Shown: piece by piece, positions 8,080 to 22,366 of the stretch
Numbering within the stretch: position 1 is the first letter of the stretch
Layout: the number at the start of each line of letters is the position of its first letter
Source: Candidatus Kuenenia stuttgartensis
GTDB taxonomy: Bacteria > Planctomycetota > Brocadiia > Brocadiales > Brocadiaceae
Direction: 5' to 3'
Assembly: GCF_900232105.1 (NCBI RefSeq)
Contig: NZ_LT934425.1
Location: forward strand, 2,610,001 to 2,642,000
Length of the DNA: 32,000 bases
Position numbers and translations under genes: made by a program
Notes under the pieces: model-generated
Database searches by the model: none
Told to the model about the DNA's origin: nothing
Seen by the model: the letters and a program-made list of their open reading frames with translations, nothing else

Positions 8080-8166
8080 GTAGAGACGCATTGCATGCGT
8101 CTGGAAACTGCTGCGCGTGAATAAAATGTTGACAAAAACAGAGAGACGCATGCAATGCGTCTCTAC
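8080..8166. repeat. Two GTAGAGACGCA...TGCGTCTCTAC-family hairpins flanking 39 bp
   Basis: gtagagacgcattgcatgcgtct (8080-8102, right arm truncated) and agagacgcatgcaatgcgtctctac (8142-8166). Located 22 nt upstream of the ychF start. Confidence 0.7.
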
Positions 8167-8187: not shown

Positions 8188-9276
8188 ATGGGTTTAAACT
8201 GTGGTATCGTAGGTTTGCCAAACGTTGGGAAATCTACCATCTTTAATGCGCTAACATCTGCCAAGGCAGCATCTGCAAATTATCCCTTCTGCACAATCGA
8301 CCCCAATGTGGGTGTGGTATCGGTGCCGGATATACGTATGGATAAAATAGCGGAAATAATATCAACGGAAAAAATTGTCCCTACAATAGTTGAATTCGTT
8401 GACATTGCAGGACTGGTAAAAGGGGCAAGCAAGGGCGAGGGACTGGGGAATCAGTTTCTGGGACACATCAAAAACGTAAATGCCCTATTGCATGTAGTGC
8501 GCTGTTTTGAAAAAAGCGATACCATCCATGTGGAAGGTAGTGTTCACCCGGAAAGGGATATCGACATTATTAATACAGAACTGATCCTGGCGGATATTGA
8601 AACGGTAGATAAAAGATTAAACAGGAGCGAAAAACTAGCAAAGACCGGGGACAAAAAAAACCTGGCAACTATTGATGTTCTGAAAAAGGTTAAAAACTCC
8701 CTGAACAATGGCGTACCGGTACGGTTATTGTGTTTGACCGATGAGGAAAAAGCCGACATTGCAGACCTGCATTTAATCACGTCGAAACCCGTATTATATG
8801 TGGCAAATATCTTTGACATAGAACAGGACAAAAAATACATCGACACCATTACCGGGTTTTCAAAAAAAGAAAACTCCGGGTTTGTCGTCATTTCCGGAGA
8901 TATCGAATCTGAAATTGCGCAAATGGAACCTTCTGAAAGGAAGGCGTATTACGAAGAAATGGGGCTGCAGGAATCGGGACTCGAAAAGCTTATCCGGGAA
9001 ACATACCAATTACTGGGATTGATTACCTATTTTACCGCCGGGCCAAAGGAAATAAGGGCATGGACTATCCTTCAAGGCACAAAAGCGCCTCAGGCGGCAG
9101 GGGTAATCCACTCGGATTTCGAGCGGGGTTTTATCCGTGCGGAAATTTATAATTATAACGATCTTATCACCCTGGGTTCTGAACAAAAGATAAAAGAAAA
9201 AGGGCTTTTGCGGCTGGAAGGCAAAGACTACGTCATGAAAGACGGCGATATCGTTCATTTCAGATTTAATGTGTAA
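8188..9276 (+). CDS. ychF: Ribosome-binding ATPase YchF (Obg/OLA1 family)
   Basis: 362 aa. GIVGLPNVGKSTIFNAL P-loop, DIAGLVKGASKGEGLGNQFL, and C-terminal TGS-like FERGFIRAEIY...GKDYVMKDGDIVHFRFNV. Confidence 0.95.
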   Translation: MGLNCGIVGLPNVGKSTIFNALTSAKAASANYPFCTIDPNVGVVSVPDIRMDKIAEIISTEKIVPTIVEFVDIAGLVKGASKGEGLGNQFLGHIKNVNALLHVVRCFEKSDTIHVEGSVHPERDIDIINTELILADIETVDKRLNRSEKLAKTGDKKNLATIDVLKKVKNSLNNGVPVRLLCLTDEEKADIADLHLITSKPVLYVANIFDIEQDKKYIDTITGFSKKENSGFVVISGDIESEIAQMEPSERKAYYEEMGLQESGLEKLIRETYQLLGLITYFTAGPKEIRAWTILQGTKAPQAAGVIHSDFERGFIRAEIYNYNDLITLGSEQKIKEKGLLRLEGKDYVMKDGDIVHFRFNV

Positions 9277-12653: not shown

Positions 12654-12668
12654 AACCCTGACAGGGTT
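12654..12668. repeat. Single REP unit AACCCTGACAGGGTT
   Basis: Exact 15-nt palindrome of the family that flanks the RAYT gene. Confidence 0.8.
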
Positions 12669-12771
12669 GTTTCGTCCTGACCCCATCATTAACGGTTACA
12701 AAAAAACGGGAATGCTCCCGATTGTACAGATTAAAAAAACGTAGGAACACGGAGCACCATGTCCCTGCAAT

Positions 12772-12928
12772 TGACCAATGACCAATGACGAAACACCTTC
12801 TAATTACAAGCCCAAATTCCGCAGACAAGGAAAAATGTTCAATATTCAATTCTCAATGTTCAATTCTCAAATTGTTGCTCATTTGCCTCTATTCTTTTAC
12901 ATTGAGCATTGAATATTGAATATTAATT
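12772..12928. repeat. Heptamer-periodic repeat block (TGACCAA x3, then AATNYTC arrays forming a long hairpin)
   Basis: tgaccaa tgaccaa tgacgaa (12772-12792). aatgttc aatattc aattctc aatgttc aattctc (12834-12868), opposed by attgagc attgaat attgaat (12901-12921). Confidence 0.8.
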
Positions 12929-12961
12929 TTCAAAAAGGTGCTAACGGAGCTTTTCGCGGTG

Positions 12962-12986
12962 TTTTTTCAAAAATCTAAAGTGTTAC
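12962..12986. repeat. Solo copy of the TTTTCAAAAAYCTAAAGTGTTAC motif, 13 nt upstream of the helicase start
   Basis: ttttttcaaaaatctaaagtgttac. A weaker second copy (ttttcaaaaaggtgctaac) lies at about 12927-12945. Confidence 0.6.
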
Positions 12987-12999
12987 AAAAGACTTCTTA

Positions 13000-15900
13000 A
13001 TGAAGATGGGGAATAGCCGCATTGTGAACTCAGATTTAACCTTTATTACCAATGAAGAAAATAGAAGCCTCCTGGAAAGATTCAGGGTCCTTATTGCAGA
13101 CACCCGGCTCTTTGATGTACTCGTTGGTTATTTCTATACCAGCGGATTCCATGCCATCTACAAATCCCTGGAAGATACCGAAAAGATCAGGATTCTTATC
13201 GGGATAAGTACAAACAAACAGGCAATAGAACTCATTCAAAAAGCAAAAAACAATCACCAGCCATTCCTTCCATATTCTCACGCCGAAGTAAAAGAACAAT
13301 TCGAACAATCTGTCACGGAAGAAGTAGAAAATGCTGAGGATAGAACAGAAGTTGAAGGGGGGATCCTTAAGTTTATTGAATGGCTGAAAAACGGAAAACT
13401 GGAAATCAGGGCTTATCCCACCGAAAATATCCACGCAAAGCTTTACATTATGACTTTTGTGGAAGGTGACAGGGATACCGGGAGAGTCATTACCGGGTCT
13501 AGTAATTTTACTCAATCAGGCCTTGTTGATAACCTTGAATTTAATGTAGAGTTAAAAACCAGGGCGGATTATGAATTTGCACTCCAAAAATTCAATGAAC
13601 TGTGGAAAGACGCCGTTGATGTAAGGGAACGATATATCTATACGATTCAAATAAAGACATGGCTGAACAACACCATTACCCCTTACGAATTGTATCTGAA
13701 ATTTTTATATGAATATTTCAAAGACGAACTCAGTCAGGCAGATGAAGTGTTTTTGAAATATCTTCCCCATGAATTTAAAAAACTGGAATATCAGGAGCAG
13801 GCAGTTTTAAACGCCAGGAAGATACTTCTGGAATACGGCGGCGTTTTTATCTCTGATGTTGTAGGGTTAGGCAAGACATACATATCGGCAATGCTGGCAG
13901 GACAGCTTGACGGCAGGACACTTGTCATTGCCCCTCCTGTGCTGCTTGAAAGATCGAATCCCGGTTCATGGACTAATGTATTTTCCGATTTCAGGGTATC
14001 GGCGGATTTTGAATCACTCGGTAAATTGGATGACCTTATTGACAGAGGGACAGAGAAATACACCAATATTATCATTGATGAGGCACACCGTTTTAGAACG
14101 GAAACAACGGTTACCTATGAGAAATTGGCGGAAATCTGCCGTGGCAAAAGAATTATTCTTGTAACGGCAACGCCTTATAACAATGCGCCAAAAGATATTT
14201 TAAGTCTTTTAAAATTATTTCAAAAAGCCAAAAAAAGCACTATTCCAAATCTTCAGGACATGGAAGGCTTCTTTAATGGACTAGATAAAAAGTTAAAAAA
14301 ACTGGACAGGCAGAAAGATTATATTAGATACATAAATACGGTAAAAGAAAATGCGCGGGAATTACGGGAAAAAGTCCTCAAATATCTCATGGTTCGCCGT
14401 ACCCGAACAGAGATTGAGAGATATTTTGGTGAAGACATAAAGAGCCAAAACATTAGATTCCCTTACGTTGAAAAGCCTGTTCCTCTTTTTTATGAACTCA
14501 ACGATACGGAGGATGAAATATTCAGCAAAACCATAGCATTGATAGCGCAAAAATTCAAATACGCCCGTTATATGCCTATGCTTTATTATGACGGTAAAGT
14601 TGGCCAGCTTGAAAAGCAGTCACAGAAAAACATGGGCAAGTTTATGAAAATACTGCTTGTTAAGCGTCTTGAAAGCAGTTTCTTTGCATTTAAAAATTCG
14701 GTGGACAGATTCCTCCGCTCTTACGAGATGTTTATAAAAGAGCTTGATGACGGAAGTGTTTATATAAGCAAGAAACACACTGGTAAAATATTTGAGTTGC
14801 TTGATAGTGACGATGATGAAGCCGTCCAGCGATTGATAGAGGAAGGCAAGGCGGAAAGATATGCAAGCAGTGAATTTAGAGAAGGCTTAAGAGATGATTT
14901 ACAGCACGACCATGACATTCTGCTTGAAATTAAAAAACTATGGCATCACATTGACCGCGACCCAAAGCTTTTAAAATTTTTGTGGGAATTATCCAAAAAC
15001 CCGGTCTTAAAAGAGAATCATCTGATTATCTTTACGGAATCAAAGGAAACCGCAAACTATCTGTTCAAAAACATAAATGAACATTATCCGGATAAGGTGC
15101 TGTGTTTTACTGGTGATTCAAGCGAGGCAACGCGAGACAAGGTTATTGAAAATTTTGACGCCAAAGCACGTCATCCTAAGGAAGATTACCGGATACTGGT
15201 CTCTACAGAAGTATTGGCTGAAGGCGTTAACCTGCACCGTTCCAATACAGTGATAAATTACGATATCCCCTGGAATCCTACCCGCATGATGCAGCGCGTA
15301 GGGCGTGTCAACCGCGTGGATACGCTATTTGAAACGATACATACCTTTAATTTTTTCCCGACCAAACAATCGAATGACCAGATAAAACTGAAAGAAGCGG
15401 CAGAGGCTAAAATCAATGCCTTCTTAACCCTGCTTGGAGGCGACGCAGAACTTTTAACAGAAGGAGAACCCATAGGCTCGCATGAATTATTTAACAGGTT
15501 GATTTCCAGACAAACGCTGGAAGGTGAGGAAGGGTCGGAGGAAAGCGAATTGAAATACCTCCAGGTCATTAAAGAGATTCGCGATAAAGACCCCGACCTT
15601 TTTGAAAAAATAAAACGCCTCCCCAAAAAGGCGCGCACTGCAAAAACCCTGACAGGGTTCTCAACCCTGTCAGGGTTAATTACCTACTTCAGACGGGGAA
15701 AACTCCAGAAATTTTTCAAAGCCGGCAGTAAAAATGTGGCGGAAGAACTGGATTTCATATCTGCGGCAAAGATTTTGGAAAGCGCCCCTGATGAAGAAAA
15801 GAAAGACCTTCCCGGACACTTTTACGAACTTCTGGATAAAAACAAAGCGGCATTTATCTTAGCGACAACGGAAGAAGTGCCGCAGCAATGGCAAAGGGGC

Positions 15901-16224
15901 GGACGTGACAGCACGGCAAGTATCCTGAGAATTTTAAAGGCAACCACGAAGAACACCCAAAAACTGACAGAAGACCAGGAACTATACCTCAAAAAAGTCC
16001 TCACCCAACTCGAGGAAGGCGGACTGCCCAAACAGACTGCAACGCAAACACTGAAAACCCTGAATGCGCTGAAGAATGAAATCGTTAACCCCCTCAAGGT
16101 ACTGGCAGTACTTCGGACGCATATACCGAAAAAACTTCTGGAAGAACATTATGCTGAGCAAAACCCAGCGGTATTTGGCAAGCGGGAAGTCATATTATCA
16201 TTATATTTGACAGCAAAACCCTGA
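13000..16224 (+). CDS. HKD/PLD-family nuclease domain fused to an SNF2-family helicase (defence-type helicase-nuclease)
   Basis: 1074 aa. One HKD motif, NIHAKLYIM...VITGSSNFTQSGL. Helicase motifs DVVGLGKT (I), IIIDEAHRFR (II), VTATPYNN (III), EGVNLH...NYDIPWNPTRMMQRVGRVNR (V/VI). Contains an in-frame REP doublet, and its stop codon lies inside a REP. Confidence 0.9.
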   Translation: MKMGNSRIVNSDLTFITNEENRSLLERFRVLIADTRLFDVLVGYFYTSGFHAIYKSLEDTEKIRILIGISTNKQAIELIQKAKNNHQPFLPYSHAEVKEQFEQSVTEEVENAEDRTEVEGGILKFIEWLKNGKLEIRAYPTENIHAKLYIMTFVEGDRDTGRVITGSSNFTQSGLVDNLEFNVELKTRADYEFALQKFNELWKDAVDVRERYIYTIQIKTWLNNTITPYELYLKFLYEYFKDELSQADEVFLKYLPHEFKKLEYQEQAVLNARKILLEYGGVFISDVVGLGKTYISAMLAGQLDGRTLVIAPPVLLERSNPGSWTNVFSDFRVSADFESLGKLDDLIDRGTEKYTNIIIDEAHRFRTETTVTYEKLAEICRGKRIILVTATPYNNAPKDILSLLKLFQKAKKSTIPNLQDMEGFFNGLDKKLKKLDRQKDYIRYINTVKENARELREKVLKYLMVRRTRTEIERYFGEDIKSQNIRFPYVEKPVPLFYELNDTEDEIFSKTIALIAQKFKYARYMPMLYYDGKVGQLEKQSQKNMGKFMKILLVKRLESSFFAFKNSVDRFLRSYEMFIKELDDGSVYISKKHTGKIFELLDSDDDEAVQRLIEEGKAERYASSEFREGLRDDLQHDHDILLEIKKLWHHIDRDPKLLKFLWELSKNPVLKENHLIIFTESKETANYLFKNINEHYPDKVLCFTGDSSEATRDKVIENFDAKARHPKEDYRILVSTEVLAEGVNLHRSNTVINYDIPWNPTRMMQRVGRVNRVDTLFETIHTFNFFPTKQSNDQIKLKEAAEAKINAFLTLLGGDAELLTEGEPIGSHELFNRLISRQTLEGEEGSEESELKYLQVIKEIRDKDPDLFEKIKRLPKKARTAKTLTGFSTLSGLITYFRRGKLQKFFKAGSKNVAEELDFISAAKILESAPDEEKKDLPGHFYELLDKNKAAFILATTEEVPQQWQRGGRDSTASILRILKATTKNTQKLTEDQELYLKKVLTQLEEGGLPKQTATQTLKTLNALKNEIVNPLKVLAVLRTHIPKKLLEEHYAEQNPAVFGKREVILSLYLTAKP
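15645..15677. repeat. 33-bp REP doublet inside the helicase ORF (in frame)
   Basis: aaccctgacagggtt-ctc-aaccctgtcagggtt, translated as (K)TLTGFSTLSGL. Confidence 0.9.
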
Positions 16225-16249
16225 CAGGGTTCTTAACCCTGTCAGGGTT
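16217..16249. repeat. 33-bp REP doublet, left flank of the RAYT; supplies the helicase stop codon
   Basis: aaccctgacagggtt-ctt-aaccctgtcagggtt. The helicase TGA (16222-16224) is the cccTGAcag of the first unit. Confidence 0.9.
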
Positions 16250-16270
16250 ACTTGTCCTTGGAGGAAGACA

Positions 16271-16834
16271 ATGAGCACAACTATCACGCCACTGTTACCA
16301 GGACACTGGTATCATATTTATAACCGGGGTATCAATGGCGAAACCATTTATCACACCGAGGCAAATTACCAATATTTTCTGGACTTGCTCGCCAAATATG
16401 TTTTTCTCACAGCAAAAGTATATGCCTATTGTCTTATGAAGAACCATTTTCACCTGTTGGTTTCTATTCATGATGATACAAAGAGAAAGCCACATCTGTA
16501 TTTTTCAGATATGTTTAACAGCTATACACAAGGGCTTAACAAACACCTGGGAAGGACGGGGAGTCTCTTCGAACGCCCCTTTCGCCGTAAGGTGATTTCA
16601 TCCGAAAAACAGCGGGTTCAGGTGACTTTATATATACACAACAATCCCAGGCATCATGGTATCATGAACGACATTGCGAAGTACCAATACTCTTCTTACA
16701 GGGCAGTGATGTCAAGCGCCCCAACGAAAGTAGAGCGTGAAGAAGTGCTTTCGTGGTTTGGTGGGCGTGATAGTTTTGTGGCTTATCATGGTGCCAGTCG
16801 TGATGACATTTCAGATGATTTAACATTGGAGTAA
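16271..16834 (+). CDS. REP-associated tyrosine transposase (RAYT; IS200/IS605 Y1-transposase superfamily)
   Basis: 187 aa. WYHIYNRGINGETIY, HUH motif AYCLMKNHFHLLV, catalytic-Tyr region TLYIHNNPRHHG, and FNSYTQGLNKHLGRTGSLFERPFRRK. Flanked on both sides by REP doublets. Confidence 0.85.
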   Translation: MSTTITPLLPGHWYHIYNRGINGETIYHTEANYQYFLDLLAKYVFLTAKVYAYCLMKNHFHLLVSIHDDTKRKPHLYFSDMFNSYTQGLNKHLGRTGSLFERPFRRKVISSEKQRVQVTLYIHNNPRHHGIMNDIAKYQYSSYRAVMSSAPTKVEREEVLSWFGGRDSFVAYHGASRDDISDDLTLE

Positions 16835-16844
16835 ATTTACCGTC

Positions 16845-16877
16845 AACCCTGACAGGGTTTGAAACCCTGTCAGGGTT
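16845..16877. repeat. 33-bp REP doublet, right flank of the RAYT
   Basis: aaccctgacagggtt-tga-aaccctgtcagggtt, ending 16 nt upstream of the MTase ATG. Confidence 0.9.
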
Positions 16878-16893
16878 AAAATGAGGCATTGAC

Positions 16894-19800
16894 ATGGATA
16901 AACAACAGGCAAAACAAATTATTCAGGAGACATTTGAGAACCCTTTTGATAAGGGCAGGTTTACCCTATTCATCAAAAATCTTCTGAACCATATTGAAGA
17001 AAACCGCATTCCTCCACGTCATGGTCAATTCATTCCTGACGCTTACAAGCCATACATCAGCAGTCTGGCGCGAATCGGCAAATTCAATGACAATGAAAAC
17101 AGGGTTGATATCCTTATCATAAAACTTCAGAAAGAGACCTCCCTTGAACGCGCCCGCACCATGCAGCGAAACTTTGTTGCCGGGTATTTACAGGGCAAAT
17201 ACGGTAGTTCAAATGAAAAAGAAGCTGCACTGGTTGCCTTTGTATCCCCGGATTCGGCAGACTGGCGTTTTTCACTGGTTAAGATGGACTATAAGTTTGA
17301 ACAGACTCAAGCCGGCAGAATGAAGGTAAAAGAAGAGTTTACACCTGCACGCCGATGGTCATTCCTGGTAGGCGCAAACGAAACCAGCCACACCGCCCAG
17401 AGCAGGCTGGTTAATATGTTGGCAAATGATGAGCATAACCCAACCCTTAAAGAACTGGAACAGGCATTTGATATTGAAACCGTAACCGAAGAATTTTTCC
17501 GAGAATACCGTGGGCTTTTTATCCGTACAAAAGAAGAACTGGACAAAATAGTAGAGACAGGTTTCAAACCTGTCTCTACCAGCCTGAAAAAGGAATTTGA
17601 ATCTAAAGGAGTTGATACCGTAAACTTTGCAAAAAAACTATTGGGCCAGATTGTATTTCTCTATTTTTTACAGAAAAAAGGCTGGTTCGGTGTAGCCCGC
17701 GAAGCCGAATGGGGCACAGGCTCTAAACACTTTTTGCGAGAGCTTTTTGAAAAAAGGCACGGCGACTATAAAAATTTCTTTAATGACATTCTGGAACCAC
17801 TCTTTTACGAAGCCTTGCGTAACGACCGCAGTCATGATGATCACTATTACAGCCAGTTTAACTGCAAAATCCCCTTCTTAAACGGTGGTCTTTTTGATCC
17901 CATTGGCAACAATGGCGGATACAACTGGGTACATAACGATATCTGTCTGCCGGACAGCCTATTCTCTAATAAAAATAAAACCAAAGAAGGCGATGAGGGT
18001 AATGGTATTCTGGATATTTTTGACCGTTACAATTTTACTGTTAGAGAAGATGAACCACTGGAAAAAGAGGTTGCCATTGATCCTGAACTTCTGGGCAAGG
18101 CGTATGAAAAGTTTAATGCAGTCCGTCCTGACAACTTTGAGGAATATGAAAAAGCGTTAAAGAGCGGTAAAAAAGGTGAAGAAAGCAAATTCAACAAGCA
18201 ATATGGCGTTTATTACACACCCCGTGAGATTGTCCACTATATGTGCCAGCAGAGCCTGATCAATTACTTGCACACAGAATTGATCGCTTCCAACCCTGAC
18301 AGGGTTCCAAACCCTGTCAGGGTTAAAGATATCGAAACCCTGATACACTTCGGCGAGCAGGTTAGCGAAAATGAAGAAATAGCATTGATCAAAGAACAAA
18401 TAATCTTAGAGGGTAAACAGAAATCTTCTGATTACAAATCAAAACTACCCGAAAGCATACGCAAGAATGCCGTATTAATTGATCAGAAACTGGCGGACAT
18501 CACCGTCTGCGACCCGGCAGTTGGCTCAGGCGCCTTTCCCGTTGGTATGATGAGCGAAATTGTAAAGGCGAGAAATGCGCTAGCACCCTTTATTGTAACT
18601 CAAGCTTCCCTATCTGCGTGTGTAGACGCACAGGCAGGCAGCTTGAGCCCAGGAACCCTGTCAGGGTTAAGGTTAGATACGCCAAGAACAACCTATGATT
18701 TCAAACGGCAATGCATCGAAAAATCTCTTTACGGCGTGGATATTGACCCCGGCGCGGTAGAAATTGCAAAACTTCGGCTGTGGCTATCGCTTGTTGTGGA
18801 TGAAGATGACATAAAAACCATCAAACCGCTACCCAATCTGGATTATAGAATTATGCAAGGCAACAGTCTGATTGAGATTCTAAACAACGAATTTTTTGAT
18901 GTGGCATTTAATCAAGAGAAGAAGGCACTTATAGAGCAACTTAAAAAAGCAAAGGACGAACTTTTTGCAATTTCAACTCCTTCATTAAAAGATGCAAAGC
19001 GAAAAGAAATTGAGGCATTGATTGCCAAAATTATTGAGCATGACAAAAAGGCAGCAATAGAAAAAATAAATTTAGAAATTCGTAGTAAGAAGGAACAAGG
19101 CAAGTTGTTTAATGATAAAATAATAGAAGAAGTAAATAGTAAGAGGATATTAGAATTAGAGGGAAAAATTCAAAAAATAAAAGACCTTAAAATCCCAGGA
19201 CCATCAGAACATTTTGAATGGCATCTTAATTTTGTCGAGGTTTTTCTCGAAAAAGGAAGATTTGATATTGTGATTGCAAATCCACCTTATTTACGCATTC
19301 AAGAAATCCAGAAAAATACTCCGGAACTAGCTGGAAAACTTAAGGATTGTTACTTATCAGCATCAGGCAGCTTCGATATTTATGCCTGTTTTGTTGAATT
19401 GGGAATAAGGTTAATGCATGATAGCGGTAACATTGCTTATATATTACCGCACAAGTTTTTCCAGGCATCTTTTGGGAAGAACCTACGAAAATTAATTTCC
19501 TCACAAAAGCTTTTACGAAAAATTGTAGATTTCGGTAGTAGTCAGGTATTTGAATCAGCAACAACATATACGTGCCTTCTGTTTTTATCTTCTCAAAATA
19601 AGAATTTCAAGTTTGCGGAACTGAAACCAAATACAAAATTAGACGATTTAAATGATGTATTTGCGTCTATAAATAGCAATAATGACTTGCGTTCAGAAAA
19701 TGTAGATGTTGCAATCATATCAAATAATACTGTGACAGAAAAAGAATGGCACTTTTCTGCAAGTAGTGCTGGAAATATCCTGTCCAAATTGAAGCAACAG

Positions 19801-20628
19801 CCAAGAACACTTGCTGATATTTGTGAAAAGATTTTTGTCGGTTTGCAAACAAGTGCTGACAAAATATATTTTCTTGAGCATATCTCAGAGAAGGATGGTG
19901 TGATAAATGCCTTTTCTAAGTCGCTCGATCGGGAAATCTCTATTGAAAAAGAAATTGTTAAACCATTATTAAAAGGTGCGGATGTTCATCGTTATTCAAA
20001 GTTACAGCCTAAAATATGGTGTATTTTCCCGTATGAACTGAAGAATAATAAGGTATTCCTTTATTCACAGAAAGAGATAAAGAGAAAATTCCCTTTAGCA
20101 TGGAAATATTTACTAGAGAATAAGAATGAACTAGAAAATAGAGAGCATGGGAGATTTAAAAAAAATTGGTGGTGTTTCAGTAGACCGCAAAATTTAACAG
20201 AATTTGAAAAGATGAAGATTCTTACACCAGATATTGCTTCAAATTGTCAAATGACAATTGATGATAAAGGTCTTTACCATACAACAACAGTGTACAGTTT
20301 TGTTTTTAAAGAAAACGGTAAAGAATCATCGAAATATTTCTTAGCCTTATTGAATTCAAAGTTATTGTGGTACTTTTTAACAACAACTGGTTCTGTTCTT
20401 CGCGGAGGCTTTTTTAGATTTAAAACAAACTATTTATTGCCTTTCCCCATCCCGAAAGAGCTTTCACAAAGCGAGCAAAAGCCTTTTATTGCCGTTGTTG
20501 ATCAAATCCTCATCACTAAAAAGAAAGACCCAAGCACCGACACGTCAGCGATGGAAAGGCAGATTGACCAAATGGTTTACAAACTCTACGACCTCACGCC
20601 GGAGGAGATTGCGATCGTTGAAGGGTAA
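16894..20628 (+). CDS. Large gamma-class N6-adenine DNA methyltransferase (Eco57I/PglX-like, with TaqI_C-like C-terminal module)
   Basis: 1244 aa. Motif I VCDPAVGSGAFPV; LYGVDIDPGAVEIAKLRLWLSLV; motif IV DIVIANPPYLRIQE. C-terminal LNSKLLWYFLTTTGSVLRGGFFRFKTNYLLPFPIP and the terminal QMVYKLYDLTPEEIAIVEG. The N-terminal region of about 530 aa has unknown function. Carries three in-frame repeat insertions. Confidence 0.9.
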   Translation: MDKQQAKQIIQETFENPFDKGRFTLFIKNLLNHIEENRIPPRHGQFIPDAYKPYISSLARIGKFNDNENRVDILIIKLQKETSLERARTMQRNFVAGYLQGKYGSSNEKEAALVAFVSPDSADWRFSLVKMDYKFEQTQAGRMKVKEEFTPARRWSFLVGANETSHTAQSRLVNMLANDEHNPTLKELEQAFDIETVTEEFFREYRGLFIRTKEELDKIVETGFKPVSTSLKKEFESKGVDTVNFAKKLLGQIVFLYFLQKKGWFGVAREAEWGTGSKHFLRELFEKRHGDYKNFFNDILEPLFYEALRNDRSHDDHYYSQFNCKIPFLNGGLFDPIGNNGGYNWVHNDICLPDSLFSNKNKTKEGDEGNGILDIFDRYNFTVREDEPLEKEVAIDPELLGKAYEKFNAVRPDNFEEYEKALKSGKKGEESKFNKQYGVYYTPREIVHYMCQQSLINYLHTELIASNPDRVPNPVRVKDIETLIHFGEQVSENEEIALIKEQIILEGKQKSSDYKSKLPESIRKNAVLIDQKLADITVCDPAVGSGAFPVGMMSEIVKARNALAPFIVTQASLSACVDAQAGSLSPGTLSGLRLDTPRTTYDFKRQCIEKSLYGVDIDPGAVEIAKLRLWLSLVVDEDDIKTIKPLPNLDYRIMQGNSLIEILNNEFFDVAFNQEKKALIEQLKKAKDELFAISTPSLKDAKRKEIEALIAKIIEHDKKAAIEKINLEIRSKKEQGKLFNDKIIEEVNSKRILELEGKIQKIKDLKIPGPSEHFEWHLNFVEVFLEKGRFDIVIANPPYLRIQEIQKNTPELAGKLKDCYLSASGSFDIYACFVELGIRLMHDSGNIAYILPHKFFQASFGKNLRKLISSQKLLRKIVDFGSSQVFESATTYTCLLFLSSQNKNFKFAELKPNTKLDDLNDVFASINSNNDLRSENVDVAIISNNTVTEKEWHFSASSAGNILSKLKQQPRTLADICEKIFVGLQTSADKIYFLEHISEKDGVINAFSKSLDREISIEKEIVKPLLKGADVHRYSKLQPKIWCIFPYELKNNKVFLYSQKEIKRKFPLAWKYLLENKNELENREHGRFKKNWWCFSRPQNLTEFEKMKILTPDIASNCQMTIDDKGLYHTTTVYSFVFKENGKESSKYFLALLNSKLLWYFLTTTGSVLRGGFFRFKTNYLLPFPIPKELSQSEQKPFIAVVDQILITKKKDPSTDTSAMERQIDQMVYKLYDLTPEEIAIVEG
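17551..17579. repeat. Perfect 29-bp GTAGAGAC...GTCTCTAC hairpin inside the MTase ORF (in frame)
   Basis: gtagagacaggttt-c-aaacctgtctctac, translated as VETGFKPVST. Same stem ends as the intergenic hairpins at 4406 and 8080/8142. Confidence 0.85.
18292..18324. repeat. 33-bp REP doublet inside the MTase ORF (in frame)
   Basis: aaccctgacagggtt-cca-aaccctgtcagggtt, translated as NPDRVPNPVRV. Confidence 0.9.
18654..18668. repeat. Single REP unit inside the MTase ORF, preceded by another palindrome
   Basis: aaccctgtcagggtt, translated as (G)TLSGL. Upstream at 18598-18647, ctcaagct...agcttgag encloses tgcgtgtgtagacgca. Confidence 0.8.
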
Positions 20629-20668: not shown

Positions 20669-22366
20669 ATGAATAAAATACTTGATAAATTACATCACAT
20701 GTCTAAAATTCCCAGGCATGGTACAGACTGTTATAAGCAATGGCTTGAACAGAAAGATTTTTTGCAGTTTCTTTTAGATACAAGCCATGGAGATATTCCT
20801 TTATATGTCTCTTATAAAGAAAGCTATATTTATTCTGTATTTCTACCGCAAAACTGTCTGCGGGGGAATTATATTGACGATTTAATGAATTGGAACTGCT
20901 TCCCTGACAGTTCATGGGGATACAGTTATTCTTATGGTAAAAAGGAAAGGGCAATAGATATTTCTCTTTTGCATCCTTTCGATTCTTCCGGGTCAAAATT
21001 ATTAAAGAATGCAACCCCTATAACTTTTCTAAGGAGTTTTGAAGGCAGAATAGGGCAAAAAAGTTATATAGAGGTTCTTCAATTGTTTACCCATCTTAAT
21101 GGTTTGCACTTTGTAGAAGAAAAGAATGCCTATTGTCGCTTAAATGAAGATGGAGATATTGAAGAAATTATTAAAATTCATCATACACCGGATGATATTT
21201 TAGTTACCATTAAACAAGATGTACTGGATCATCATTTGTTTCTATCTAACTCAGTATTGTTACGACTTTTTGACAGAACTCTTTGCAATAACTGGATAAA
21301 ATCTAGCGCAGAAACCCGGAATAAATCTAATTTTTCTGATAAAAAGAATAAAATATATGCTCGACAAGGTATTGCGTATGATAAAGAATGTCTGCCCACT
21401 GCGGGCTGGCTGAGAGGATTTCAAATCATACGAAATTATCAGCCACGCAAAAAGATGATAAAGATTTTAACCGATGGACATTCAAAACCTCAAAAGTATG
21501 AAGAGTTTATTGCCCATGATTGGAAGCGTAAGAAAATTGCGTCTTTTTCCTGTGACCCCAAAAAACTGGACAATTATTTTGTTGAATCAGATAAACCTTT
21601 TGAGACATCTCCTGTGTTTTTTAAACCAGATGTCCTTTTAAAGTATAAACAGAATCCAGAAAAATATACTCTCGAACAACGAAGTATACATTGTAGGGAG
21701 AGTTGGAGTTTAAAAACATACGATATTAACGAAGCGGGCCAAGTCCATACCTATTTGATTTACTTGGGAGATCTTCCGCATTCAGAACAACTTCATTGGA
21801 AGTCTTATAATGAGAAACCAAAGGCTAAAATATCCAGGAGAGCTTTTACAACAGATTTCATGGGGAAGTGTGATTTATCGTATGAGCCTTTATCTGCATT
21901 AAAAAAAGCTCTAAAAGATTTAGAGGAAGAAAAACCAGATTTATGGTCATGTTCAGATGGAAAACTAAATCAGCAACTCCACTATCCGGTTACTGATTCA
22001 CTGAAAGAATGGATAGACGAAATTCATACATTGGATAAGCTTGTAGTTGAAGGGCTTAAAAAACCGTATTTAAGGAATATAGCGATATCATTGAATTGTT
22101 ATGACAATAAAGTGGGCACTATAAAACTACTAAAAAAGATTCTTGAGACAAAAGAAATTGATAGTCATGAAATCAACGAAATCATATCCCCTTTGGAAGA
22201 TATTCATTTTTTGAGAACAAAGTTAGCTGGGCATAGCTCTGGAAAAGAAGCAGATAAAATCAGAAAAGATCTAATTGCAAAGCATGGAGACCTAAGAAAG
22301 CATTTTCGCAACCTTGTTGAAAAAACTGATAAAAGCATAAAAGGGATGAAACGAATCCAACTATAA
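20669..22366 (+). CDS. Uncharacterised 565-aa protein, third gene of the helicase/MTase module (possible C-terminal HEPN-like Rx5H)
   Basis: Long uninterrupted ORF 41 nt after the MTase, on the same strand and with the same AT-rich composition as the MTase 3' half. No P-loop, TM segment or nuclease motif was seen. The only candidate motif is IHFLRTKLAGHSSGKEA near the C-terminus. Confidence 0.6.
   Translation: MNKILDKLHHMSKIPRHGTDCYKQWLEQKDFLQFLLDTSHGDIPLYVSYKESYIYSVFLPQNCLRGNYIDDLMNWNCFPDSSWGYSYSYGKKERAIDISLLHPFDSSGSKLLKNATPITFLRSFEGRIGQKSYIEVLQLFTHLNGLHFVEEKNAYCRLNEDGDIEEIIKIHHTPDDILVTIKQDVLDHHLFLSNSVLLRLFDRTLCNNWIKSSAETRNKSNFSDKKNKIYARQGIAYDKECLPTAGWLRGFQIIRNYQPRKKMIKILTDGHSKPQKYEEFIAHDWKRKKIASFSCDPKKLDNYFVESDKPFETSPVFFKPDVLLKYKQNPEKYTLEQRSIHCRESWSLKTYDINEAGQVHTYLIYLGDLPHSEQLHWKSYNEKPKAKISRRAFTTDFMGKCDLSYEPLSALKKALKDLEEEKPDLWSCSDGKLNQQLHYPVTDSLKEWIDEIHTLDKLVVEGLKKPYLRNIAISLNCYDNKVGTIKLLKKILETKEIDSHEINEIISPLEDIHFLRTKLAGHSSGKEADKIRKDLIAKHGDLRKHFRNLVEKTDKSIKGMKRIQL

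Follow-up and report, generated by a model that had tools for sequence, protein, structure and literature searches.

Copies of a palindromic REP repeat probably inserted in frame into loops of an Eco57I-type methyltransferase of Candidatus Kuenenia stuttgartensis

Within the 32,000-nt stretch of the Candidatus Kuenenia stuttgartensis genome analysed here (the window), the gene for an Eco57I-type methyltransferase contains segments that are best read as copies of mobile palindromic repeats, inserted into the gene and surviving in dispensable loops of its product; we put the probability of this reading at about 0.75. The inserts would have survived because they are in frame, free of stop codons and located in loops that the enzyme can spare. 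The main repeat is a 33-bp doublet of a repetitive extragenic palindromic (REP) unit, and its presumed mobiliser is the product of the RAYT gene at 16271-16834. The segments are copies of a dispersed repeat, lie in the host reading frame and are restricted to certain lineages; the host gene is under purifying selection, and a structural model of its product places the segments in loops.

The repeat unit is the 15-bp palindrome AACCCTG[A/T]CAGGGTT, which occurs ten times in the window, always within 12654-18668. Searching with AACCCTGNCAGGGTT gave 10 matches in the 32,000 nt against 0.00 expected from 100 shuffles, and perfect palindromes with a stem of at least 9 bp numbered 20 in the raw count (7 non-overlapping, five of which lie inside 15645-18324) as opposed to 0-2 in the shuffled sequences. 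Unit T is the reverse complement of unit A, and the doublet (REPIN) consists of the palindrome, a 3-nt spacer and the palindrome's reverse complement, 33 bp or 11 codons in all. The two inverted units can thus form one long hairpin, with a 15-bp stem and a dG of about -18 kcal/mol (z -7 to -8). An Rfam scan of the whole window returned no match, so no known structured RNA accounts for these hairpins. The doublet is open in two of the three frames on either strand and reads NPDRVxNPVRV or TLTGFxTLSGL.

At least 120 genomic stretches contain the exact doublet; their sources include Brocadia, Kuenenia, Bacteroidota, Balneolaceae and KSB1. Five of the stretches fetched (L017, L082, L084, L093 and L107) map to separate places scattered over the complete Ca. 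Brocadia pituitae genome. The doublet is mostly intergenic in the Brocadia, Kuenenia, Bacteroidota and KSB1 genomes; among 129 doublets, about 12-15% lie in long ORFs and the remaining 85% or so in short open stretches. Outside this locus, in-frame copies were seen in T9SS cargo proteins, a T2SSE ATPase, EPSP synthase and several RAYTs. One exactly matching single unit of the A form is intergenic in the window as well, upstream of the helicase gene (12654-12668). As a short palindromic unit with many dispersed and mainly extragenic copies, the window palindrome is a genuine REP.

The host gene (16894-20628, forward strand) encodes a predicted gamma-class N6-adenine DNA methyltransferase of 1244 aa with a TaqI_C target-recognition domain. 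Its Pfam matches to Eco57I (1.4e-39, 136 bits) and TaqI_C (1.2e-14, 55 bits) exceed the gathering cut-offs, and Foldseek returned CamA (E 2e-23), M.BseCI, PglX and M.TaqI. The motifs run in the order X, I, II and IV (YYTPREIV, DPAVGSGAF, LYGVDID and NPPY) ahead of the C-terminal target-recognition domain, as is typical of the Eco57I/TaqI_C class. Motif I (PAVGSGAFPVGMM, 18514-18552), which forms the SAM-binding loop, is where the preliminary description of this DNA had placed it, whereas LYGVDID (18727-18747), there called a helix, is modelled as strand beta2 and represents motif II. Catalytic motif IV occupies 19279-19290 (residues 796-799); like motif I, it is invariant in alignments A1 and A3. 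The protein matches the PADLOC REase_MTase_IIG model over its full length (1119 bits), and its conserved partner is a PLD-SNF2 helicase. The label 'PglX-like' was too strong, as the resemblance is distant (98 bits against a cut-off of 500 for BREX_1_MTaseX, and 84 against 400 for BREX_2); no BREX partner genes were found near the methyltransferase gene, whose neighbours are the PLD-SNF2 helicase, the RAYT and an unassigned protein of 565 aa. With the NCBIfam BREX cut-offs missed and BREX neighbours absent, identification as a BREX PglX was rejected.

The first in-frame doublet in the methyltransferase gene (site 1, 18292-18324) reads AACCCTGACAGGGTT-CCA-AACCCTGTCAGGGTT and is translated in frame 1 as NPDRVPNPVRV, residues 467-477, as originally reported; its hairpin has a 15-bp stem (dG -17.9 kcal/mol, z -8.1). 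In alignments of 19 and 85 homologues this position is a bimodal indel region, with the NPDRV.NPVRV peptide restricted to a few close relatives, and the AlphaFold model of the window protein shows it as a loop linking helices 443-466 and 477-505. Two orthologues, L001 and L096, keep an ancestral loop between two REP copies, and in L177 site 1 has been trimmed by a 9-nt in-frame deletion. Rather than a simple insertion, site 1 is most likely an ancestral loop with REPs on either side, since reduced by deletion to one doublet, which is one reading of five sequences: two doublets would at the start have flanked a loop of about 35 residues, and recombination between them would have removed the loop and left a single doublet. 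The order of these events, as at site 2, is one that we infer.

Site 2 (18595-18668) is probably a pile-up of three pieces, namely a hairpin from a second family of repeats, a palindrome nested inside that hairpin, and a REP doublet that would later have been cut to one unit. The hairpin comprises GTAACTCAAGCTTCC (18595-18609) and AGCTTGAG (18640-18647), with an imperfect inner palindrome of 30 bp between them (18610-18639). The nested palindrome given earlier as 18598-18647 is present, and so is its inner TGCGT..ACGCA stem (z -3.95), but its start had been set one base early, as the outer arms are CTCAAGCT at 18599-18606 and AGCTTGAG at 18640-18647. A fuzzy search with the entire palindrome as a single unit found only the orthologous position, at five loci. 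The outer arms, however, equal an unsplit 23-mer of relatives, which allowed the palindrome to be recognised as a known repeat. This 23-mer occurs in 53 metagenome contigs, and its family is linked to a second Y1 transposase. The 'extra palindrome' of the earlier account is thus what is left of a hairpin from a second family of dispersed repeats, GTAACTCAAGCTTCC|AGCTTGAG. The single T-form REP unit that follows (18654-18668) is an exact match and is read in frame 2 as TLSGL (codons 18655-18669). In orthologues L002 and L096 a complete doublet stands at this place, and in L080 a degenerate one. The complete site-2 peptide between motif I and LYGVDID, VTQASLSACVDAQAGSLSPGTLSGL, had been translated correctly. 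At 37 residues this segment is longer in the window than in any homologue seen, 64 of the 85 having 10-13, and the closest full-length homologue (L003, 79% aa identity) is without the entire insert.

REP doublets also occur in and around the two genes upstream. The helicase gene (13000-16224, forward strand) encodes the conserved PLD(HKD)-SNF2 partner of the methyltransferase (Pfam PLDc_2, SNF2-rel_dom and Helicase_C; PADLOC HKD+Snf2, E 1e-46) and carries an in-frame doublet at 15645-15677 (TLTGFSTLSGL) that stands in place of KHKTEHANS in REP-free homologues, a net gain of 2 aa. In the REP-free lineages L178 and L179 the helicase gene directly adjoins the methyltransferase gene, whereas in the window a RAYT-type Y1 (HUH) transposase gene (16271-16834, forward strand, 187 aa) is wedged between them. 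One doublet lies 5' of it (16217-16249), its A unit supplying the helicase stop codon TGA (16222-16224), and another lies 3' of it (16845-16877), 16 nt before the methyltransferase start codon, so that the gene is flanked by repeats in the manner of a REPtron. The same doublet-RAYT-doublet arrangement is present in L001; in L002 and L080 a single unit is all that is left on the 5' side.

The RAYT product matches NCBIfam REP_Tyr_transpos with an E of 6e-12, but its 45.6 bits fall below the curated cut-off of 80 (NF047646, REP-associated tyrosine transposase), as does its Pfam Y1_Tnp match (E 0.004, 17.6 bits against 23); by these scores it is a distant relative of the curated model and not an equivalog. 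A single-sequence phmmer search of the PDB gave no match, and a profile of 12 RAYT-family sequences reached TnpA_REP (4ER8) with an E of 1.2e-4. The motifs are at N58-H-F-H61 and Y121-I-H-N-N-P126; no variation is seen in alignment A2 at N58, H59, F60, H61, H123, N125 or P126, and Y121 and I122 are nearly invariant. That this transposase mobilises the REP is presumed.

A third loop of the methyltransferase holds a 29-bp perfect palindrome, GTAGAGACAGGTTTCAAACCTGTCTCTAC (17551-17579, translated as ETGFKPVST), of the GTAG...CTAC 'double foot' REP type. The segment has 18 aa in the window and 13 aa in 82 of 85 homologues, residues 225-228 have a pLDDT below 50, and further copies of the palindrome were found in L001, L041 and L065. 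The same three loops (residues ~221-230, 467-477 and 567-596) have been colonised repeatedly by different palindromes, with at least four unrelated palindrome families at these positions in different lineages and phyla, and in the relatives P0025 and P0085 a whole Y1 transposase gene is read in frame with the methyltransferase at the same loop sites. It is conceivable, if unlikely, that the three loops are true insertion targets for hairpin-recognising Y1 transposases, beyond the mere survival of random insertions, such that REP-RAYT elements preferentially home to, nest in and remodel the loops of defence genes. If so, these elements could supply restriction-modification-like enzymes with an internal means of deleting and varying their loops.

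That the segments are ordinary conserved features of the methyltransferase family, repeat-like by chance, is extremely improbable. Several homologues do have the peptides in common (P0002, P0005, P0012 and P0017); however, they are missing from most of the 85 homologues, the closest full-length one is without site 2 entirely, and the DNA exactly copies a repeat found at no fewer than 120 unrelated genomic places. The earlier suggestion of repeat-derived, lineage-specific insertions is borne out by these comparisons, and the alignments with 19 and 85 homologues make both sites indel-variable loops. The predicted structures agree. AlphaFold puts both inserts between conserved helices, and in the insert-free homologue P0014 short loops connect these same helices; the assignment to loops is based on the secondary structure and pLDDT of the model, the latter being very low at site 2 (34-37).

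The preliminary description had left it open whether the catalytic domain tolerates its inserts or is compromised by them. Inactivation would mean that the inserts broke the enzyme and that the gene is a recent casualty, its frame open only because units of 33 bp and 30 bp preserve it. Defence genes are frequently lost, site 2, which separates motifs I and II of the SAM-binding fold, is the longest among the 85 homologues, and the methyltransferase gene of the L002 orthologue has lost 1 nt close to its 5' end, a frameshift which shows that decay does occur in this family. However, REP-bearing orthologues have a dN/dS of 0.07-0.2 at a dS of 0.5-0.8, an average since divergence in which a recent loss of function in the window genome would stay hidden, and their inserts are older than the split of several lineages that have kept intact frames of 1150-1290 aa. 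Motifs I, II and IV are invariant in the homologue alignments, and the inserts occupy helix-helix loops whose length varies across the family. We consider inactivation quite improbable; the intact ORFs and low dN/dS speak for lineage-specific insertions that are in frame and tolerated by the enzyme, and against a compromised one, and from selection we infer that its activity has been retained.

It is also rather unlikely that the intragenic REPs have been retained because they themselves serve a function, whether as hairpins tuning expression of the helicase-RAYT-methyltransferase operon, as RAYT binding sites or as recombination sites that diversify the locus. Such a role could be suggested by the REP units in a three-way helicase alignment, which are invariant at 30 of 30 positions as compared with 61% at third codon positions (P ~9e-4), with spacers that vary freely and even flip to the reverse complement; REPIN populations, however, are generally homogeneous in sequence and need no local function to be so. 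The RAYT is itself under purifying selection (dN/dS 0.13-0.15) and has a fixed place within the operon in six or more assemblies, and the repeated colonisation of the three loops would fit as well. Against this, copies at the same sites have decayed (the first doublet of L001, and those of L080, L096 and L177). The doublet at 16217-16249 scores as terminator-like, but intragenic copies are without a T-tract; terminators were rejected as a general explanation, this one doublet having the only T-rich tail, and a weak one. The REPs were likewise rejected as breakpoints of swapped C-terminal specificity (target-recognition) modules, since identity breaks near residue 660 or at NPPY, away from them.

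Our preferred reading, mobile repeats tolerated in loops, has precedents, as in-frame intragenic REPs and the RAYT subclass concerned (2.4) have both been published. Most REPs of the GTAG/CGTC super-families lie outside genes, and a minority have entered known genes in frame, often as dimers and at times twice in one gene; since the insertion points are in modular or loop regions, neutrality was proposed for them (Di Nocera, De Gregorio and Rocco 2013, PMC3733652). The window repeats share all of these traits. They differ in that the main repeat is without a GTAG or CGTC tag (only the palindrome at 17551 is of the GTAG...CTAC type), in the size of the dimer (33 bp or 11 aa, as against 20-30 aa) and in the hosts, a restriction-modification-type methyltransferase and a helicase instead of repair genes. 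A text search of that paper for 'Kuenenia' found no anammox genomes. REPtrons of TnpA_REP subclass 2.4 (Bertels group 4) have a REP-flanked gene with the motifs NH[IFV]H and YIxNNP, and REP stems with three G-C pairs near the base or a 'double foot' GT[AG]G...C[TC]AC (Quentin et al. 2018, PMC6006769). The window RAYT has both motifs and agrees in its REP flanks and the form of the stem; unlike those REPtrons, this one sits inside a two-gene defence module and its REPs have entered both neighbouring genes, whereas the RAYT itself is without an internal REP. A further subclass 2.4 trait quoted from that paper was seen in the relatives L013, L016, L056, L075 and L087.

Rickettsia palindromic elements (RPE; Ogata et al. 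2000, as cited in PMC3733652) are in-frame palindromic inserts in protein-coding genes. They resemble the window inserts in being palindromic repeats that lie in frame in functional genes and add surface peptides. The E. coli REP/BIME system with TnpA_REP (PDB 4ER8) has the Y1 HUH fold and the association with REP hairpins in common with the window, and its sequence kinship with the window RAYT is distant. The REPs of E. coli, imperfect palindromes that carry a GTAG tag, lie strictly outside genes. RPE-1 is much longer than the window doublet, roughly 100-150 bp, and its hosts are reduced intracellular genomes; no dedicated transposase is known for RPE. Full-text literature searches with the literal repeat core gave only chance primer matches, and a search combining anammox with repetitive extragenic palindromic gave nothing relevant.

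General knowledge of REPs is left unchanged by this finding, which would provide a clean and datable case of selfish palindromic DNA turned part of a working protein. Sister lineages preserve its stages: a loop with two REPs, one REP after deletion, doublet versus single unit, and nested elements. The more notable aspect is the repeated arrival of different palindromes, and in relatives even of a whole transposase gene, at the same three loops. For enzymology, these loops of a large Eco57I-type methyltransferase accept from 5 to more than 300 extra residues and may be useful for tags or fusions. For annotation, the repeats explain the odd low-complexity peptides NPDRVxNPVRV, TLTGFxTLSGL and VTQASSL...HKQDACDT, all three of which are found again and again in otherwise unrelated anammox and Bacteroidota proteins.

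The palindromic unit AACCCTG[A/T]CAGGGTT occurs in 10 exact copies in the window, with none expected by chance, and all 10 are confined to 12654-18668. Among them are four doublets, in which an A-form unit and a T-form unit, its reverse complement, are separated by three variable bases; each 33-bp doublet can fold as a single hairpin with a 15-bp stem (dG about -18 kcal/mol, z -7 to -8). One doublet (15645-15677) is read in frame in the helicase gene as TLTGFSTLSGL, two flank the REP-associated tyrosine transposase (RAYT) gene (16217-16249 and 16845-16877), and the fourth, site 1 (18292-18324), lies in frame in the methyltransferase (MTase) ORF (16894-20628) as NPDRVPNPVRV, residues 467-477, just as the preliminary description had read it. 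At site 2 the single T unit described as encoding TLSGL is present at 18654-18668, with its codons at 18655-18669. The nested palindrome reported beside it is also present, with an inner TGCGT/ACGCA stem, and its outer arms are 18599-18606 and 18640-18647, so that it begins at 18599 rather than 18598.

The 1244-aa host protein is predicted to be an Eco57I-type, gamma-class N6-adenine DNA methyltransferase with a TaqI-like target-recognition domain. It matches Pfam Eco57I (1.4e-39) and TaqI_C (1.2e-14), a PADLOC type IIG model covers it end to end, and its nearest solved folds are CamA, M.BseCI, PglX/BrxX and M.TaqI. Identification as a BREX PglX failed the curated cut-offs.

We compared segment lengths among 85 MTase homologues. 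The site 2 segment (L563-Y601) is 10-13 residues long in 64 of the 85 and 37 in the window, the longest of all. The site 1 segment (L459-D479) is bimodal: a short class has 11-16 residues, a long class of 42-46 residues contains a conserved SYEKLGD...GQLDLTIEH module, and the window has 19. Six orthologous loci (L001, Brocadia sp.; L002, B. pituitae; L096, Kuenenia hertensis; L080, a Brocadiaceae MAG; L003 and L177, metagenomes) have the same repeats in the same places, with differences. At site 1 the long ancestral loop survives in L001 and L096, bordered on both sides by a REP copy. The window, L002 and L003 have a single doublet and lack the loop, which on the simplest reading would have been deleted when the two copies bordering it recombined; L177 shows an in-frame loss of 9 nt of the A unit. 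Site 2 holds a full doublet in L002 and L096 and a degenerate one in L080; the window, L001 and L177 have a single unit there, and L003, the closest full-length homologue (79% amino acid identity), has no site 2 insert whatever. The alignment thus bears out the inserts at both sites as lineage-specific rather than conserved family features.

The outer part of the site 2 palindrome, GTAACTCAAGCTTCC followed by AGCTTGAG, forms a 23-mer that is found unsplit in relatives and in 53 metagenome contigs, where it usually precedes the inverted variant CACAAGCAGGATGCTTGTGTTAC and frequently has a second Y1 transposase linked to it. Since a 30-bp imperfect palindrome (18610-18639) interrupts the window 23-mer (15|8), site 2 reads as a stack of three pieces: a hairpin belonging to a second repeat family, a palindrome nested within it and, after six bases, the REP unit. 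B. pituitae has a fourth element here, GTCATTGCGAGG...CTCGCAATGAC.

Whether the enzyme tolerates these inserts or is compromised by them had been posed as an alternative, and the evidence favours tolerance. Over the N-terminal 800 codons, REP-bearing orthologues show dN/dS of 0.07-0.2 at dS of 0.5-0.8, and MTase motifs X, I, II and IV do not vary among homologues. In an AlphaFold model of residues 1-1200 (mean pLDDT 80), site 1 forms a loop between helices 443-466 and 477-505, and site 2 an unstructured stretch (residues 570-595, pLDDT below 50) between helices 547-566 and 600-610. A further palindrome insert, at 17551-17579, is modelled as a turn of low confidence (residues 225-228). In the homologue P0014, which lacks the inserts, short loops connect the same helices. 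LYGVDID, previously called a helix, is modelled as strand beta2 (motif II). In Rossmann-fold methyltransferases generally, the loop that leads from helix A to strand 2 faces away from the cofactor pocket. Selection, motif invariance and modelled loop placement together favour inserts that are tolerated rather than damaging, and the MTase may remain active.

The repeat is a true REP, with its putative transposase adjoining. The 187-aa RAYT ORF (16271-16834), between the helicase and MTase genes with a doublet on each side, has HUH (NHFH) and tyrosine (YIHNNP) motifs conserved in 12 relatives. Against the NCBIfam model for REP-associated tyrosine transposases it reaches E 6e-12, with a score below the curated cut-off, and its family profile matches E. 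coli TnpA_REP (PDB 4ER8, E 1.2e-4). The RAYT motifs, REP stems and double-foot palindromes match the published hallmarks of TnpA_REP subclass 2.4, namely these HUH/tyrosine motifs, three G-C pairs close to the base of the stem and palindromes of the "double foot" form GTAG...CTAC; members of the subclass have been found in Cyanobacteria, Bacteroidetes and a scattering of other phyla (PMC6006769). The insert at 17551-17579, a 29-bp perfect palindrome of double-foot type (GTAGAGACAGGTTTCAAACCTGTCTCTAC), adds 5 residues to the MTase; the same element is in the same place in L003, and elsewhere in L001 (19030), L041 (two copies) and L065. A palindrome at 8142-8166 (AGAGACGCATGCAATGCGTCTCT, then AC), GTAG-tagged on the minus strand, lies 22 nt upstream of a ychF-like gene at 8188.

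Exact copies of the 33-bp doublet are present in at least 120 stretches from other genomes, among them Brocadia, Kuenenia, many Bacteroidota, Balneolaceae, KSB1 and Moduliflexus/Vecturithrix; five of the stretches are scattered over the complete Ca. Brocadia pituitae chromosome, and RAYT homologues (31-55% identity) lie beside doublets in about 10 of these loci. About 85% of 129 doublets are in short open stretches, which marks the family as chiefly extragenic. In-frame doublets also occur in four T9SS cargo proteins, a T2SSE ATPase, an EPSP synthase, a caspase-domain protein and several RAYTs. The T9SS cargo proteins, large surface proteins of Bacteroidota (L036, L101, L116, L122), carry theirs 56-207 codons before the ORF end, and each ends in a T9SS C-terminal sorting domain of about 75 aa. 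In L003 (3550-4935) and L177 (3363-4841) a 461-492-aa protein fills the helicase-MTase slot instead of the RAYT (SLFN_AlbA_2/HATPase_c_4/Fic-like_C matches in L003, no Pfam hit on record for L177), and both loci still carry REP copies inside the flanking genes.

Conservation is much higher in the REP units than around them: in a three-way helicase alignment they are invariant at 30/30 positions, against 61% of third codon positions (P about 9e-4). Decayed copies are also found. In orthologous doublets (spacers 15660-15662, 16232-16234 and 16860-16862 against L001 and L002) the 15-bp units are identical and the 3-nt spacers differ. Two spacer pairs are exact reverse complements (CTC and GAG, TGA and TCA), as hairpin-loop inversion or re-insertion in the opposite orientation would give. 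Across 142 doublets the spacer follows the pattern Y-N-R.

Rickettsia RPEs are the classic precedent for in-frame palindromic inserts. In-frame intragenic REPs, often dimers and sometimes two per gene, have been judged probably neutral (PMC3733652), and are already described inside subclass 2.4 tnpA_REP genes (PMC6006769). The MTase inserts are a further case of this known kind, in anammox bacteria and in a defence methyltransferase. Most interesting is the repeated colonisation of the same three MTase loops, which might mean that existing hairpins are targeted, and not only that insertions survive there. Site 2 holds other palindromes in other phyla (CCCTCCT...AGGAGGG in L178, CATTCCCGCGAAGGCGGGAATC in L179), and the homologues P0025 (Ca. 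Brocadia sp. WS118; L012) and P0085 carry an entire second Y1 transposase, read in frame, within site 1. L172 and L174 likewise read one there. These in-frame transposases have RRNLPHW...MPNHVHAIV...IEDNP motifs, with VTQASSL...HKQDACDT repeat peptides on both sides that recur at site 2 and the 17551-equivalent site; the MTases bearing them are single ORFs of 1359 and 1404 aa.

The constant partner of the MTase is a PLD-SNF2 helicase gene (13000-16224), and the two abut or overlap in REP-free lineages. The N-terminal half of the MTase gene is 83-88% identical to L001, L002 and L003, whereas the C-terminal target-recognition half (19300-20628) has only about 45-48% nucleotide identity to L001/L002 and 91% to L003, a contrast that indicates swapping of specificity modules. 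Compared with the other orthologues, L002 has a 1-nt deletion near the MTase 5' end (about 9840), which makes annotated P0017 begin at the equivalent of residue 92. For the 565-aa ORF directly downstream (20669-22366), none of Pfam, NCBIfam and PADLOC gave a match; the B. pituitae gene in this position is 87% identical, and L001 has Piwi-domain and SIR2-like proteins in its place. The helicase insert at 15645-15677 takes the place of about 9 residues present in REP-free homologues and so lengthens the protein by 2 aa; the equivalent site in L179 holds a different palindrome, giving the peptide PLVKGGEGGF. The helicase stop TGA (16222-16224) sits in the A unit of the 16217-16249 doublet and is thus supplied by the repeat; the last residues vary among orthologues (TAKP, TG, TGE). 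Just upstream of the helicase start, a 26-nt inverted repeat (12834-12924), whose arms are 92% complementary and separated by 39 nt, is rich in TTCAAT motifs and overlaps promoter-like hexamers.
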